64,000 bases of DNA from Escherichia coli (GTDB lineage Bacteria; Pseudomonadota; Gammaproteobacteria; Enterobacterales; Enterobacteriaceae): assembly GCF_016026235.1 (NCBI RefSeq), contig NZ_CP065613.1. One strand, given 5' to 3'. Under the pieces are notes generated by a model. The model had not been told where the DNA came from, made no database searches, and saw nothing but the letters and a program-made list of their open reading frames with translations. Made by a program: the position numbers and the translations under genes. Positions 58,174 to 63,655 of this stretch are shown piece by piece (position 1 is the first letter of the stretch; each line of letters begins with the position of its first letter).

Positions 58174-58471
58174 TGCGCATTTGAAACGCCTGCAACGGTG
58201 AATAGTAAGAGATTTAAGCCCCAGGGAGTGGGGCGGGAATGGTTTGCTAATGAATGATCCTGAACTTTATAATCTCCCGGCATAATTTCAAGGGGATTAT
58301 TTGAGAGAAATACACAAAAGTGAGTTTTAACAAAGGTATTTATCAGGCCATAAATGTGACCTGCTTCGGATAAAAAAGATTCAGTATCGAAAAACCAATG
58401 ATACTCTTGCTGATGGTTACCAACAGTAATTAAGATGTGATTTGTTTTTCCGTAATCGCAAAAATATTGCC

Positions 58472-58882
58472 ATGACCATAAAAGAAAAATTCTCACAAAA
58501 ATATCCCCATGCTTCCTTTTGTACTTTTGGCGATTCAGCAGCGTTGGCCGATCACCTCGCAACGTTGATTGCGACTGGTGTTAAAACAGCTTCCTGTGGT
58601 TCGCTGGCGGGATGTATTGAAGACAACGCATTTCCGATGATTGGTGAGTATAAGATTGTAGAAAATAGCCGTGGTGAGCCTGTATGTGTTATCAGAGTGA
58701 TTGGCCTGCATTTACTGCGCTTTTCTGATGTCACCGCGGAGCTTGCCCGTAAGGAAGGTGAAGGTGACCTCAGTCTTGAATATTGGCGTAATGAACACCG
58801 TCGTTTTTTCCAGGCAGAAGGAAGCTATTCACCAGAAATGGACGTTATCTTTGAAGAATATGCCCTTATTGACGTTGTGTAG
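58472..58882 (+). CDS. ASCH/PUA-like domain protein (136 aa from MTIKEKF)
   Basis: Short soluble protein with ASCH-like pattern; assignment by weak resemblance only. Confidence 0.5.
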   Translation: MTIKEKFSQKYPHASFCTFGDSAALADHLATLIATGVKTASCGSLAGCIEDNAFPMIGEYKIVENSRGEPVCVIRVIGLHLLRFSDVTAELARKEGEGDLSLEYWRNEHRRFFQAEGSYSPEMDVIFEEYALIDVV

Positions 58883-59132
58883 ATAACTATTTATCTACAC
58901 GAAATAAGCTCACAAACATAAAATATCGCTAATTTTGTTTATTTTGCTGTTTTTTACGTGATGAATGTCACACTTATTATTGCTGCCCGTTTTGTCCATA
59001 TTTATAACCATATTTTTAATAGCTGCCTGAAATAGAGCTGTTTATTCTGCATAAAAATATTCGAAAATTCTTATTCTCTCCAGCGCGCTAATTTGGGCGA
59101 ACACTTCCTGACTACCCTGCAATGAGGCTGAA

Positions 59133-60119
59133 ATGATGAATAAACGTTTTGTTATCAATATGGTGTCTTCGCTGTTATTAGGCGCTGCGCTAATTTCTGC
59201 GCCGCTCCAGGCAGCGGAAAAAGTCGTGGTGAATATTTCTAAAGTCGATGGTATGCCGTGGTTTAATCGCATGGGCGAAGGTGTGGTTGAGGCGGGTAAA
59301 GCCTTTGGTGTTAATGCCTCACAGGTGGGGCCTTCAAGTACTGATGCTCCGCAACAAGTTAAAATTATTGAGGATTTAATCGCCCGTAAGGTTAATGCAA
59401 TTACTATCGTGCCAAACGATGCCAACGTGCTGGAACCGGTATTCAAAAAAGCGCGAGATGCCGGAATTGTGGTTCTGACCAACGAATCCCCCGGTCAGCC
59501 AAGTGCTAACTGGGATATTGAAATCATTGATAACGAAAAATTTGCCGCTGAATATGTTGAGCATATGGCGAAACGCATGGGTGGCAAGGGCGGCTATGTG
59601 ATTTACGTGGGTAGTTTGACCGTGCCGCAGCATAACTTATGGGCTGACTTGCTGGTGAAATACCAGAAAGAGCATTATCCGGATATGCATGAAGTTACCC
59701 GCCGCATGCCGGTTGCCGAGAGTGTGGATGACTCACGTCGTACCACACTGGACCTGATGAAAACCTATCCTGACTTGAAAGCGGTTGTCTCCTTTGGTTC
59801 AAACGGTCCGATTGGCGCGGGACGTGCGGTGAAAGAGAAACGGGCGAAAAATAAAGTCGCAGTCTATGGCATGATGATCCCTTCACAGGCGGCATCACTG
59901 ATTAAAAGTGGTGATATCACCGAAGGGATTACTTACGATCCGGCCTCTGCAGGTTACGCACTCGCAGCCGTCGCCAGCACATTGCTGAAGGGTGAAGAGA
60001 TCAAACCTGGATTAGAAATGCAGAATCTGGGTAAGGCCGACGTAGATATGGATAAGCGAATTATCCGTTTCCATAAGGTATTACTGGTCAACAAAGACAA
60101 TATCGACTCACTTTATTAA
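59133..60119 (+). CDS. Periplasmic substrate-binding protein, LsrB-like (PBP type I), 328 aa
   Basis: Signal peptide; resemblance to LsrB including C-terminal NKDNID motif. Confidence 0.8.
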   Translation: MMNKRFVINMVSSLLLGAALISAPLQAAEKVVVNISKVDGMPWFNRMGEGVVEAGKAFGVNASQVGPSSTDAPQQVKIIEDLIARKVNAITIVPNDANVLEPVFKKARDAGIVVLTNESPGQPSANWDIEIIDNEKFAAEYVEHMAKRMGGKGGYVIYVGSLTVPQHNLWADLLVKYQKEHYPDMHEVTRRMPVAESVDDSRRTTLDLMKTYPDLKAVVSFGSNGPIGAGRAVKEKRAKNKVAVYGMMIPSQAASLIKSGDITEGITYDPASAGYALAAVASTLLKGEEIKPGLEMQNLGKADVDMDKRIIRFHKVLLVNKDNIDSLY

Positions 60120-61652: not shown

Positions 61653-62616
61653 ACTGAAAAAACGCCATGAATTCTGGCTGGCATTACTGATTGTGGTGCT
61701 GTTTGTTGGCCTTGCCTGGCGCAGCGACGAGTTTCTGACATTCGGTAATTTGTACGATCTCGCCAATAACTATGCCATGTTGACTATTCTCGCCTGTGGT
61801 TTGTTTGTGGTGTTGATTTCCGGTGGAATTGATATTTCGTTTCCAGCAATGACCATCATTGCGCAATACGGCATGGTGCTGTTGCTGCAAAAAATTGGTG
61901 GCAACTTCGCTGTCGCGTTTGCACTGGCGGGCTGCATCGGCATTTTACTTGGCTTAATTAACGCCTTACTGGTTAATCGCCTACGGGTGCCTTCTATCAT
62001 CATCACTATCTCGACGCTGAATATTTTCTATGGCCTGCTGTTATGGTTGAGTAAAGGTGTGTGGCTGTACGACTTTCCGCCGTGGTTTGAGCAGGGGGTT
62101 ATGTTGTTCAAGTACACCGATGCTGATGGCTATGACTATGGCCTTGGTCTGCCGCTGATCGCCATGATTACGGTGGTGCTGCTAACAGCGTTTATCATGA
62201 ATTTCACCAGTGTAGGGCGCAAAATTTATGCCCTTGGCGGGAACCGCGAATCAGCCAGTCGCATCGGCTTTAGCGTGCTGAAACTGCAACTTTTCGTCTA
62301 TGGCTATATGGGATTGATGTCTGGCGCTGCGGGTGTAGTGCAGTCGTGGACGGTGATGACTGTCGCCCCCGATTCTCTTCTGGGTTATGAGCTGACAGTA
62401 CTGGCAGCGGTGGTGCTTGGCGGCACTAGTTTGCTCGGCGGGCGCGGCACGTTAACCGGTACTTTGCTCGGCGTGGTGTTGTTGGCAGTGATGCAAAACG
62501 GGCTAAATTTATTGGGAGTCTCGTCTTACTGGCAAACATTGATCACCGGCATCATCATCGTTGCCAGCATTAGTGCCACGGCGTGGAGTCAGCATCAGAA
62601 CCGGAGTCTGCTATGA
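61645..62616 (+). CDS. ABC transporter permease (RbsC/LsrC-like), 323 aa
   Basis: Multi-pass hydrophobic protein; start overlaps ATPase stop. Confidence 0.85.
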   Translation: MAELKKRHEFWLALLIVVLFVGLAWRSDEFLTFGNLYDLANNYAMLTILACGLFVVLISGGIDISFPAMTIIAQYGMVLLLQKIGGNFAVAFALAGCIGILLGLINALLVNRLRVPSIIITISTLNIFYGLLLWLSKGVWLYDFPPWFEQGVMLFKYTDADGYDYGLGLPLIAMITVVLLTAFIMNFTSVGRKIYALGGNRESASRIGFSVLKLQLFVYGYMGLMSGAAGVVQSWTVMTVAPDSLLGYELTVLAAVVLGGTSLLGGRGTLTGTLLGVVLLAVMQNGLNLLGVSSYWQTLITGIIIVASISATAWSQHQNRSLL

Positions 62617-63569
62617 AAAAATCGTGGCGTAATAACGTTGAGTTTTACTTGATCGGCCTGCTGGTGCTAACTGTTGCCGCGTTCAGCATTACTATGCCGG
62701 AGATTTTCTGGTCGATAAGTAATTTCCAGTCCGTCGCTTCGCAAATGCCCGTGCTGGGCATTCTGGCGTTGGCTATGGCGGTGACCATGCTTTGCGGTGG
62801 CATTAACTTGTCAATTATAGCCACTGCTAACGCCTGTTCACTGGTGATGGCGTGGGTGGCGACTCAGTATCCACTGGGTATTGCTACGGTTGTCGCTACG
62901 TTACTGGCGGGCGCTGGCGCGGCGGTGATAATCGGTTTATGTAACGGCGTATTGATTGCTGGTATTCGAGTGTCGCCAATTCTTGCAACGCTTGGGATGA
63001 TGACGTTGCTCAAAGGGATAAATATTCTGGTGACAGGTGGTAGCGCCATTGCCAATTATCCCTCATGGGTGCTGTGGTTGAATCATGCGCAATGGTTCGG
63101 TATTCCGCTACCGATGTGGTTGTTTGCCGCAGTGGCACTGGGGCTATGGATATTGCTGGAGAAAACGCCGCTCGGTAAAGCCATTTACCTGATTGGGTCT
63201 AACGAACGAGCAACACTTTACTCCGGCATTAACACTCGTCGGGTGCTGATTTGGGTTTATGTCATTTCCGCCTTGCTTTGTGCGGTAGCGGCATTTTTGA
63301 TGATGTCGAAACTCAACTCGGCTAAGGCCTCTTATGGCGAATCGTACTTGCTGGTGTCAATCCTCGCGGCAGTACTCGGCGGGGTTAATCCGGACGGCGG
63401 CAGCGGGCGGATAATTGGTATGGTGCTGGCGCTGTTTCTTCTGCAAATTATTGAAAGCGGCTTCAATATTCTCGGTATAAGCCCCTACCTGACGATGGCC
63501 TTATGGGGAACGTTGCTGCTCTGTTTCATTCAGGTTCGCGGCATGTTGGGGCTGGATCGGGTGGTTTAA
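62613..63569 (+). CDS. ABC transporter permease (RbsC/LsrD-like), 318 aa from MKKSWRNN
   Basis: Multi-pass hydrophobic protein; ATG overlaps previous stop (ATGA). Confidence 0.85.
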   Translation: MKKSWRNNVEFYLIGLLVLTVAAFSITMPEIFWSISNFQSVASQMPVLGILALAMAVTMLCGGINLSIIATANACSLVMAWVATQYPLGIATVVATLLAGAGAAVIIGLCNGVLIAGIRVSPILATLGMMTLLKGINILVTGGSAIANYPSWVLWLNHAQWFGIPLPMWLFAAVALGLWILLEKTPLGKAIYLIGSNERATLYSGINTRRVLIWVYVISALLCAVAAFLMMSKLNSAKASYGESYLLVSILAAVLGGVNPDGGSGRIIGMVLALFLLQIIESGFNILGISPYLTMALWGTLLLCFIQVRGMLGLDRVV

Positions 63570-63655
63570 ATATTGGCTATATTCAATGGACGCGTTTTGC
63601 CGCGATGACATATCAGGCATCGCCAAATACACATAGCTAATCAGGAGTAAACACA

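Follow-up and report, generated by a model that had tools for sequence, protein, structure and literature searches.

A functional-looking allele of the aau D-ribulose importer operon, with a predicted AraC/CRP promoter, between yahJ and yahK of Escherichia coli

Introduction

What does the ATP-binding cassette (ABC) importer encoded between yahJ and yahK of Escherichia coli take up, how is it controlled, and how did it come to occupy this site? We addressed these questions in a 64,000-nucleotide (nt) stretch of E. coli DNA (RefSeq assembly GCF_016026235.1, contig NZ_CP065613.1; hereafter the window), in which the interval 58174–63655 runs from the first base past the yahJ stop codon (58173) to the last base before the yahK ATG (63656). 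This space is filled by five plus-strand open reading frames (ORFs), and the RefSeq gene models agree (offset 55673), as expected from a sequence-only reading of the window that had described five co-directional genes. That reading treated the importer as an unidentified system; it had in fact already been named and characterised as Aau. The best explanation of the whole interval, which we hold with high confidence, is that 59133–63569 is the aau operon, that it imports D-ribulose under AraC and cAMP receptor protein (CRP) control for use by the AraB route, and that the upstream ASCH-domain gene is separate from it.

The ligand and structure of Aau, its dependence on AraC and L-arabinose, its need for AraB and its contribution to fitness in the mouse gut were already published in 2024 and 2025, and its published importance lies in the colonisation advantage that enterohaemorrhagic E. 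coli (EHEC) gains by scavenging D-ribulose with L-arabinose present. Four of the features described below were not found in the two Aau papers (PMC11127945, PMC12307932), namely a double-deletion scar in K-12-type strains, a CRP–araI1–araI2 cassette upstream of the operon, the placement of orthologous operons in ara clusters, and a conserved hairpin after aauA.

The cluster matches the Aau importer of EHEC

In a phmmer comparison, the binding protein of the window differed from Protein Data Bank (PDB) entry 9I1M at only 1 of 328 residues (713 bits). Next came 3D02, a structural-genomics entry from Klebsiella (628 bits) on which a literature search found no paper, and then, as the next solved relative, 5BRA, an Ochrobactrum binding protein (186 bits). 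Entry 9I1M is AauA with D-ribulose bound, from the Z0415–Z0419 system on O-island 17 of EHEC (Cottam et al., Nat Commun 2024 and 2025; PMC11127945, PMC12307932), which was named the "accessory L-arabinose uptake" transporter (PMC11127945). The published dissociation constant (KD) of AauA was 1.98 µM for D-ribulose versus 598 µM for L-arabinose, and in the crystal alpha-D-ribulofuranose made stacking contacts with Trp43 and His167 and hydrogen bonds with Lys37, Glu118, Glu196 and Ser223 (PMC12307932). All six contacts (K37, W43, E118, H167, E196 and S223) were present in the window protein. We also fetched 80 loci with AauA relatives (58–99% identity, one genome per species), comprising 60 Aau-type loci and 20 of the related Rbl type, and the alignment showed the same six residues to be invariant across all 80 orthologues, in both clades alike. 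The earlier suggestion of a furanose-type sugar as ligand thus agrees with the form of D-ribulose seen in the crystal of the same protein.

The operon layout was likewise that of Aau. The gene for AauA, the periplasmic D-ribulose-binding protein, lies at 59133–60119 (+ strand; RefSeq start 59136; signal peptide to about residue 27) and is followed by genes for a fused two-domain ABC ATPase (60168–61652, +; 494 amino acids (aa); Z0416-7 in EDL933; intact), permease 1 (61645–62616, +; 323 aa; Z0418) and permease 2 (62613–63569, +; 318 aa; Z0419). Overlapping start and stop codons, noted earlier, were confirmed, as the ATPase and permease 1 genes share 8 nt and the two permease genes share ATGA. 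A binding protein, a fused ATPase and two permeases therefore stand between yahJ and yahK in the order known from EHEC, and O157:H7 has the same gene models at the same genomic position. The operon has neither a regulator nor a kinase gene of its own, and no match to AraB, RblK or another kinase was obtained in the E. coli-type loci.

At the family level, the ATPase aligned over its full length with the AraG, XylG, YtfR, RbsA and LsrA models, with best NCBIfam scores for AraG (422 bits), XylG (411 bits) and YtfR (411 bits). The permeases aligned with AraH, RbsC and LsrC/D; permease 1 scored highest with AraH (158 bits) and RbsC (151 bits), and permease 2 with RbsC (164 bits) and LsrD (144 bits). 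Each of these scores was under the cut-off of its model. The single polypeptide with two nucleotide-binding domains, the RbsC/AraH-type permeases and the Peripla_BP_4-type binding protein are those of a CUT2-type sugar ABC importer, a group that we take to be TC 3.A.1.2.

The window allele is of a non-O157 kind, with about 99.4% nucleotide identity to O157:H7. Its ATPase has a Walker A motif at residue 37, LSGG at residue 397 and no internal stop, whereas the allele of EHEC strain TUV93-0 is non-functional owing to a premature stop at nt 259 (PMC11127945/PMC12307932). Codon 87 is CAG in the window (60426–60428) and TAG in O157:H7 Z852 (locus L083, 4495–5979), and since nt 259 falls in codon 87, the Z852 stop is the one described in TUV93-0; the ATPase of the window is thus intact in contrast to that of EDL933/TUV93-0-type strains. 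This codon sits in the motif VIYQDLSLFP, and by our own reading its position would be that of the Q-loop glutamine of ABC ATPases. Because AauA matches 9I1M, the contact residues are kept, and the locus and gene order are the same, the transporter is, as judged from sequence comparison, the already characterised Aau system, here as a functional-looking allele. The expectation of an accessory ABC uptake system that is missing from K-12 and is related to LsrB but has another ligand was therefore correct, and Aau is that system.

Published experiments describe what Aau does in EHEC. L-arabinose was the only inducer of the aau promoter, which was silent in an araC deletion and was restored by complementation (PMC11127945). 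Uptake of D-ribulose via Aau occurred only with L-arabinose present, and the imported sugar was phosphorylated by AraB and passed into the pentose phosphate pathway (PMC12307932/PMC11127945). Deletion of aau caused a competitive defect in the streptomycin-treated mouse (PMC11127945) and left growth on L-arabinose unimpaired (PMC11127945/PMC12307932). By the same scheme, the periplasmic AauA encoded in the window would have micromolar affinity for alpha-D-ribulofuranose and would bind L-arabinose about 300 times less tightly. Loaded AauA would dock on the two permeases, the fused ATPase would hydrolyse ATP to bring the sugar in, and the co-induced L-ribulokinase AraB would phosphorylate D-ribulose for entry into the pentose phosphate pathway.

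A predicted AraC/CRP promoter upstream of aauA

The spacer upstream of aauA contains a CRP-like site, CGTGATGAATGTCACA, at 58957–58972 (+; 9/10 consensus positions), one of the four sites with at most one mismatch in the whole window. It is followed after 11 bp by a predicted direct AraC half-site I1, TGCCCGTTTTGTCCATA (58984–59000, +; 17 bp), then by the spacer TTTA and a second predicted direct half-site I2, TAACCATATTTTTAATA (59005–59021, +; 17 bp). A predicted −10 element, TATTCT, lies 21 nt past I2 (59043–59048, +), and transcription is predicted to start near 59055. The araBAD promoter of K-12 (pBAD) has the same order, with a CRP site, 13 bp, araI1 TAGCATTTTTATCCATA, 4 bp, araI2, 20 nt and TACTGT; the distances of 13 bp and 20 nt there correspond to 11 bp and 21 nt in aau.

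Since matches to the AraC half-site consensus were uninformative by themselves, we used a composite test with fixed spacing together with conservation across genera. The composite AraC score upstream of aauA was 15/20, while random 300-bp windows gave best scores of 10–11 and reached at least 14 in 12 of 2000 cases. The TCCATA box was kept across genera (alignment A1), and GTTTAYTCT was kept in Klebsiella and Franconibacter. When the best CRP site and the best AraC site were scanned independently in the 80 loci, they were separated by exactly 11 bp in 30 Enterobacterales and Aeromonas loci and by 12 bp in 13 Pasteurellaceae loci. Many of these loci carry perfect TAGC-N7-TCCATA boxes, and 5 more fit after a shift in register by one half-site. 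In total, the CRP–I1–I2 cassette was found in 48/60 Aau-type loci, ranging from Aeromonas and Pasteurellaceae to Escherichia, versus 0/20 Rbl-type loci, which gave background scores.

Several points weigh against direct control at these sites. The half-site consensus alone was not in excess in the window (39 matches versus 48 expected), the 'TAGC' box of I1 is degenerate in E. coli (TGCC), and the expression evidence comes from published EHEC strains rather than from the window strain. We infer direct AraC and CRP binding at the coordinates above from the composite score, its conservation and the published genetics rather than from a footprint. The main text of the Aau papers (PMC11127945, PMC12307932) makes no mention of an AraC binding site, and the coordinates of the probable AraC and CRP sites are added here. 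With no regulator of its own, the operon would be read from a class-II-type promoter that, like araBAD, combines a weak −35 with a CRP site and a direct pair of AraC half-sites, and that would fire only with AraC bound to L-arabinose and with cAMP–CRP present.

Orthologous operons adjoin ara genes in several families

The order binding protein, ATPase, permease, permease was found wherever the locus sequence extended far enough (two loci end inside the operon), and an AraC homologue lay within 9 kb at 26/60 Aau-type loci. In Pasteurellaceae, araC stands directly upstream of the operon and AraB or another FGGY kinase directly downstream, with araA/araD nearby in some; the succession of araC, Aau-type operon and FGGY kinase was observed at loci L041–L060 and L075 (for example L050, 7873–14945). 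The regulator in Mannheimia qualified as an AraC equivalog (384 bits versus a cut-off of 208). The Pasteurellaceae FGGY kinase belongs to a xylulokinase-like branch (103 bits with the XylB model, 36 with the ribulokinase model); it may be a non-orthologous ribulokinase and the operon the main pentose uptake route of these bacteria. In Providencia, Budvicia, Limnobaculum and Leminorella, the Aau-type operon adjoins araC and araBA(D).

The Rbl-type clade (58–61% identity) was organised differently. An RblK-like FGGY pentulose kinase (TIGR01315, 695 bits) was present at 20/20 of its loci. Rbl of Citrobacter rodentium (ROD_24811–61) and its relatives share the operon order, the six contacts and the D-ribulose ligand with Aau but have a downstream kinase and no AraC/CRP cassette, whereas Aau lacks a kinase and relies on AraC and AraB. 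In the window, yahK rather than an FGGY D-ribulokinase directly follows the permeases, which separates the operon from the Rbl type.

Given the cassette in 48/60 Aau-type loci and the linkage to ara clusters, direct AraC/CRP control, with the binding itself predicted, very probably goes back to the ancestor of the Aau clade and did not first arise in EHEC. We lean, with some reserve, towards the broader view that Aau is an old and true member of the AraC/CRP regulon, not an EHEC add-on that hijacks AraC, and that two deletions removed it from K-12-type E. coli. If so, scavenging of ketopentoses (D-ribulose and perhaps L-ribulose) would be an originally present branch of the response to L-arabinose, and K-12 would represent a derived, impoverished state. 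AraC control and ara linkage across the family temper the published narrative of 'hijacking' and 'convergent evolution'.

Weighing other ligands

The RefSeq/PGAP product name of the binding-protein gene (59136–60119), 'autoinducer 2 ABC transporter substrate-binding protein', is found in more than 2000 genomes and would make the system an LsrB-type autoinducer-2 (AI-2) importer or a second AI-2 receptor. LsrB is indeed a detectable homologue of AauA (28% identity to E. coli K-12 LsrB, E 4e-24; PDB LsrB entries at 75–88 bits), LsrACDB belongs to the same CUT2 subfamily and binding-protein fold family, and a C-terminal N-K-[DE]-N-I stretch is common to both proteins. The resemblance to LsrB pointed out earlier thus holds at the family level, but AauA reached only 111 bits with the NCBIfam LsrB model NF011937 (cut-off 384). 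Its best curated family was RhaS (TIGR02637), whose score of 136.7 bits was higher than that of LsrB yet far under the cut-off of 342.25, and no rhamnose catabolic genes lie nearby. The NKDNID motif of the window protein is similar to NKENIG in E. coli LsrB without being identical, and it lies outside the ligand pocket. Functional LsrB proteins share more than 63% identity with S. Typhimurium LsrB and have the contacts K35, D116, D166, Q167, P220 and A222 (PMC3386761, citing Pereira et al. 2009); the 28% identity of AauA, although measured against the K-12 protein, is far under this threshold. Comparison with the LsrB ligand contacts, a check proposed earlier, placed K37, E118, Q166, H167, F221 and S223 of AauA at these positions in pairwise and multiple alignments, so that 1/6 AI-2 contacts is conserved, the lysine only, and the idea of an AI-2 signal fails this residue test. 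The gene order is B-A-C-D versus A-C-D-B in lsr, none of lsrK, lsrR, lsrF and lsrG lies within 58174–63655, and the genuine lsr operon of K-12 is elsewhere in the genome. These features had been taken to indicate another ligand, rightly so, since the AauA crystal contains D-ribulose (PMC12307932). An AI-2 function is therefore hardly credible, and the widely propagated product name is misleading and is corrected here.

A role within L-arabinose metabolism, in which L-arabinose or L-ribulose would be taken up and D-ribulose would be a secondary or coincidental ligand, is a different matter, and the signals for it tell against D-ribulose as the physiological substrate. The operon is induced by L-arabinose and not by D-ribulose, it carries the pBAD-like cassette, orthologues with identical contacts lie inside ara clusters in several families, and a test of L-ribulose binding to AauA is apparently absent from the Aau papers. 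Regulator and inducer are also those of AraFGH, and the ATPase and permease 1 scored best with AraG and AraH. However, Aau differs from AraFGH in having two permease genes and in preferring D-ribulose over L-arabinose, and the AraF model was not among the nine NCBIfam matches of AauA. The roughly 300-fold difference in KD, the D-ribulose in the crystal and the normal growth of the aau deletion on L-arabinose speak for D-ribulose. So does the Rbl clade, which has the same six contacts and for which published work reports specificity for D-ribulose and no induction by L-ribulose. The idea that AauA binds a minor furanose form of L-arabinose, by which the weak apparent KD would fit the ara-cluster setting, was set aside on stereochemical grounds; by our own reasoning, the diol that is cis in ribulofuranose would be trans in L-arabinofuranose, making the latter no obvious mimic. 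On this evidence, we consider a primary role in the uptake of L-arabinose or L-ribulose unlikely and retain D-ribulose as the probable physiological substrate.

K-12-type strains retain a deletion scar

A full-length cluster was found in 2211 of 5426 complete E. coli genomes (41%), which answers the earlier proposal to survey its distribution, and aau is reported to be enriched in phylogroups B1, E and D (PMC11127945/PMC12307932). The direct succession of yahJ and yahK in K-12 stated earlier also held, in that a K-12-like genome has no intact gene between them and only a 75-nt pseudogene fragment. We compared this K-12-like locus (L001, spacer 6001–6376) with the window by blastn to define the breakpoints. 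The spacer begins with the first 61 bp past yahJ (window 58174–58234), followed by 22 unrelated bp. Its middle piece of 72 bp is 93% identical to the 3' end of the ASCH gene and the adjoining hairpin (58833–58904), and is followed by 63 diverged bp that by eye are partly like the region up to the CRP site. The 3' piece runs from the last 72 nt of permease 2 into yahK (63498–63655; 98% identity). K-12-type genomes therefore lack segment 1 (58235–58832; ASCH promoter and 5' part), with 22 bp instead, and segment 2 (58905–63497; aau promoter through most of permease 2), with 63 bp instead. The 75-nt RefSeq 'hypothetical protein, missing N-terminus' of K-12-like genomes is the permease 2 stub.

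The same three-piece match pattern was seen in all aau-negative genomes listed. An unoccupied site could not hold the 3' ends of two genes in their proper order as this spacer does, and the comparison argues that K-12-type strains descend from an aau-positive ancestor via two deletions of about 0.6 kb and about 4.6 kb, and the earlier description of the cluster as inserted between yahJ and yahK must be reversed. A divergent Escherichia (locus L030; 91.5% nucleotide identity by blastn) has pdeL, a truncated ASCH gene, an intact aau operon and yahK in succession (L030 7468–13868). There, window 48116–49316 is joined to 58783 onward and the whole yahB–yahJ block (49317–58173) is missing, and the ASCH truncation differs from that of K-12-type strains. 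Because this block is missing in L030 while aau is present, the segment that varies or was acquired may be yahB–yahJ rather than aau.

These observations bear on the published account of aau as part of O-island 17, 'horizontally acquired' in EHEC-related lineages. The patchy distribution just described is real and fits a recently acquired island, as do the AT-rich ASCH region and spacer (34–42% GC) and the closest binding proteins outside Escherichia, which are those of Klebsiella and Franconibacter at 92% identity. Nevertheless, the scar common to the aau-negative genomes listed, and the presence of aau next to yahK already in L030, do not suit such a history. No integrase, tRNA or direct repeats were apparent at the junction sequences. 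The GC content of aauA–D is 50.3%, near that of the window (48.9%) and typical for E. coli, and that of the yahB–yahJ block is 53.5%. In view of the scar stubs, the synteny of L030 and the unremarkable GC content of aauA–D, horizontal acquisition of aau in E. coli is doubtful, and we regard a recent arrival between yahJ and yahK as quite unlikely. A more fitting description of the 'island' is that of an ancestral locus which K-12-type strains have lost by deletion.

The ASCH-domain gene is a separate neighbour

The first gene of the interval (58472–58882, +) encodes a 136-aa ASCH-domain protein of YhfF/COG4405 type (Pfam PF04266, E 3.5e-22, residues 27–133). The sequence-only reading had grouped it with the transporter, an uptake system that might feed the adjacent yah genes. 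Within 9 kb on either side, an ASCH homologue was found in 0/78 non-Escherichia Aau/Rbl loci and only in an Escherichia locus, and yahI/yahJ homologues were found within 9 kb in none of the 80 loci. The protein has 526 homologues, mostly in Enterobacterales and labelled YhfF by JGI. Those of Kosakonia and Yersinia stand alone in unrelated contexts, beside mgtE and a chemoreceptor gene in the former and lysS in the latter, and offer no functional lead. No NCBIfam family was matched, and the nearest ASCH structures, 1T62 and 3S9X, have no assigned function. Genomic context thus points to a stand-alone YhfF-type neighbour that is not a transporter component, and the published route for the imported sugar runs through AraB to the pentose phosphate pathway rather than to yah products.

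The stop codon of the ASCH gene lies within a perfect 12-bp stem-loop (58875–58902, +; extensible to 58865–58908; no U-tract). RNA folding gave −15 kcal/mol and a z-score of −4.87, with 0/200 shuffled sequences as stable. The stem-loop is AT-rich, and both the K-12 scar and L030 still carry it although the gene is destroyed there. It probably forms or stabilises the 3' end of the ASCH transcript and separates ASCH from aau. Given its survival where the gene is destroyed, it may serve independently of the gene, for example as a protein-binding palindrome or an RNA 3' end. The strong hairpin and the 250-bp, 34% GC spacer with its own promoter argue for separate transcription of ASCH and aau. Upstream of the ASCH gene, a promoter-like site (TTGCTA-18-TATAAT, 10/12) lies at 58244–58273 (+), which is weak evidence for a promoter, as such sites were no more frequent in the region than by chance (4 found versus 4.6 expected).

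Invariant positions of the ASCH family comprise a G-x-K-T-x-[S/T] stretch (K38-T39-x-[S/T]41), Glu95 and Glu97. They are reminiscent of Lys21, Thr24 and Glu74 of YqfB, the E. coli N4-acetylcytidine (ac4C) amidohydrolase with the same Pfam domain. Arg26 of the YqfB set (Lys21/Thr24/Arg26/Glu74), however, has no counterpart in the family of the window protein, and profile comparison by hhalign found no significant relation (probability 1.4%). A 2026 preprint on ASCH tRNA ac4C erasers makes no mention of YhfF, 1T62 or 3S9X. Our best guess, held with low confidence, is a small hydrolase or an RNA- or nucleoside-binding protein unrelated to sugar uptake.

One could still imagine ASCH and the importer as a single module that supplies a modified nucleoside or N-acyl compound to yahD–yahJ (carbamate kinase, amidohydrolase). 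The two are co-directional and adjacent, and they co-occur almost perfectly in E. coli (ASCH in 2213 genomes, aau in 2213, both in 2211). Furthermore, the one ASCH enzyme of E. coli that has been characterised, YqfB, acts as an amidohydrolase on N4-acylcytidine, and YahJ resembles cytosine deaminase. Against these links, Aau has a simple ketopentose as its ligand, the yah genes persist in K-12 without aau, and L030 keeps aau with a truncated ASCH gene and no yahB–yahJ block. The contexts of the orthologues, the hairpin and AraC-type promoter between ASCH and aauA, and the lack of a significant relation to YqfB also speak against it. Co-occurrence within E. coli is better explained by deletion history than by function. 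A common module is accordingly very improbable, and we treat ASCH and aau as separate neighbours.

A structurally conserved hairpin follows aauA

The GC hairpin reported earlier after the binding-protein gene was confirmed between aauA and the ATPase gene at 60129–60146 (+). It has the form TCGGGGC-GAAA-GCCCCGA, with a 7-bp stem and a GAAA loop, and is followed by TTCTTATT. By energy alone it was not significant (z −1.5). A stem-loop was nevertheless found at this position in 78/79 scorable loci, in unrelated sequences and usually without a U-tract. Among the 68 spacers of 30–150 nt, the median z-score was −3.1, and 58/68 were more stable than at least 48 of 50 shuffled sequences. These results indicate that the hairpin is conserved as structure and not as sequence. 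An Rfam scan of 57900–64000 gave no match at E ≤ 0.1. Hairpins in binding-protein operons usually protect the upstream mRNA or partly terminate transcription, which leaves the binding protein in excess. By analogy, the stem-loop after aauA probably raises the ratio of binding protein to membrane components and would keep AauA in excess over the permeases and ATPase.

Minor observations

Locus L003 (SFEK01000152.1), a 4.7-kb contig labelled 'MAG: Bacteroidales bacterium', encodes Aau proteins 99–100% identical to those of E. coli and is almost certainly a wrongly binned E. coli contig. Elsewhere in the window, between yahG and yahI (55422–55834), where K-12 has the ORF 'yahH', two overlapping ORFs contain the same motif of about 35 residues three times, a pattern that indicates tandem REP/BIME-type palindromes.

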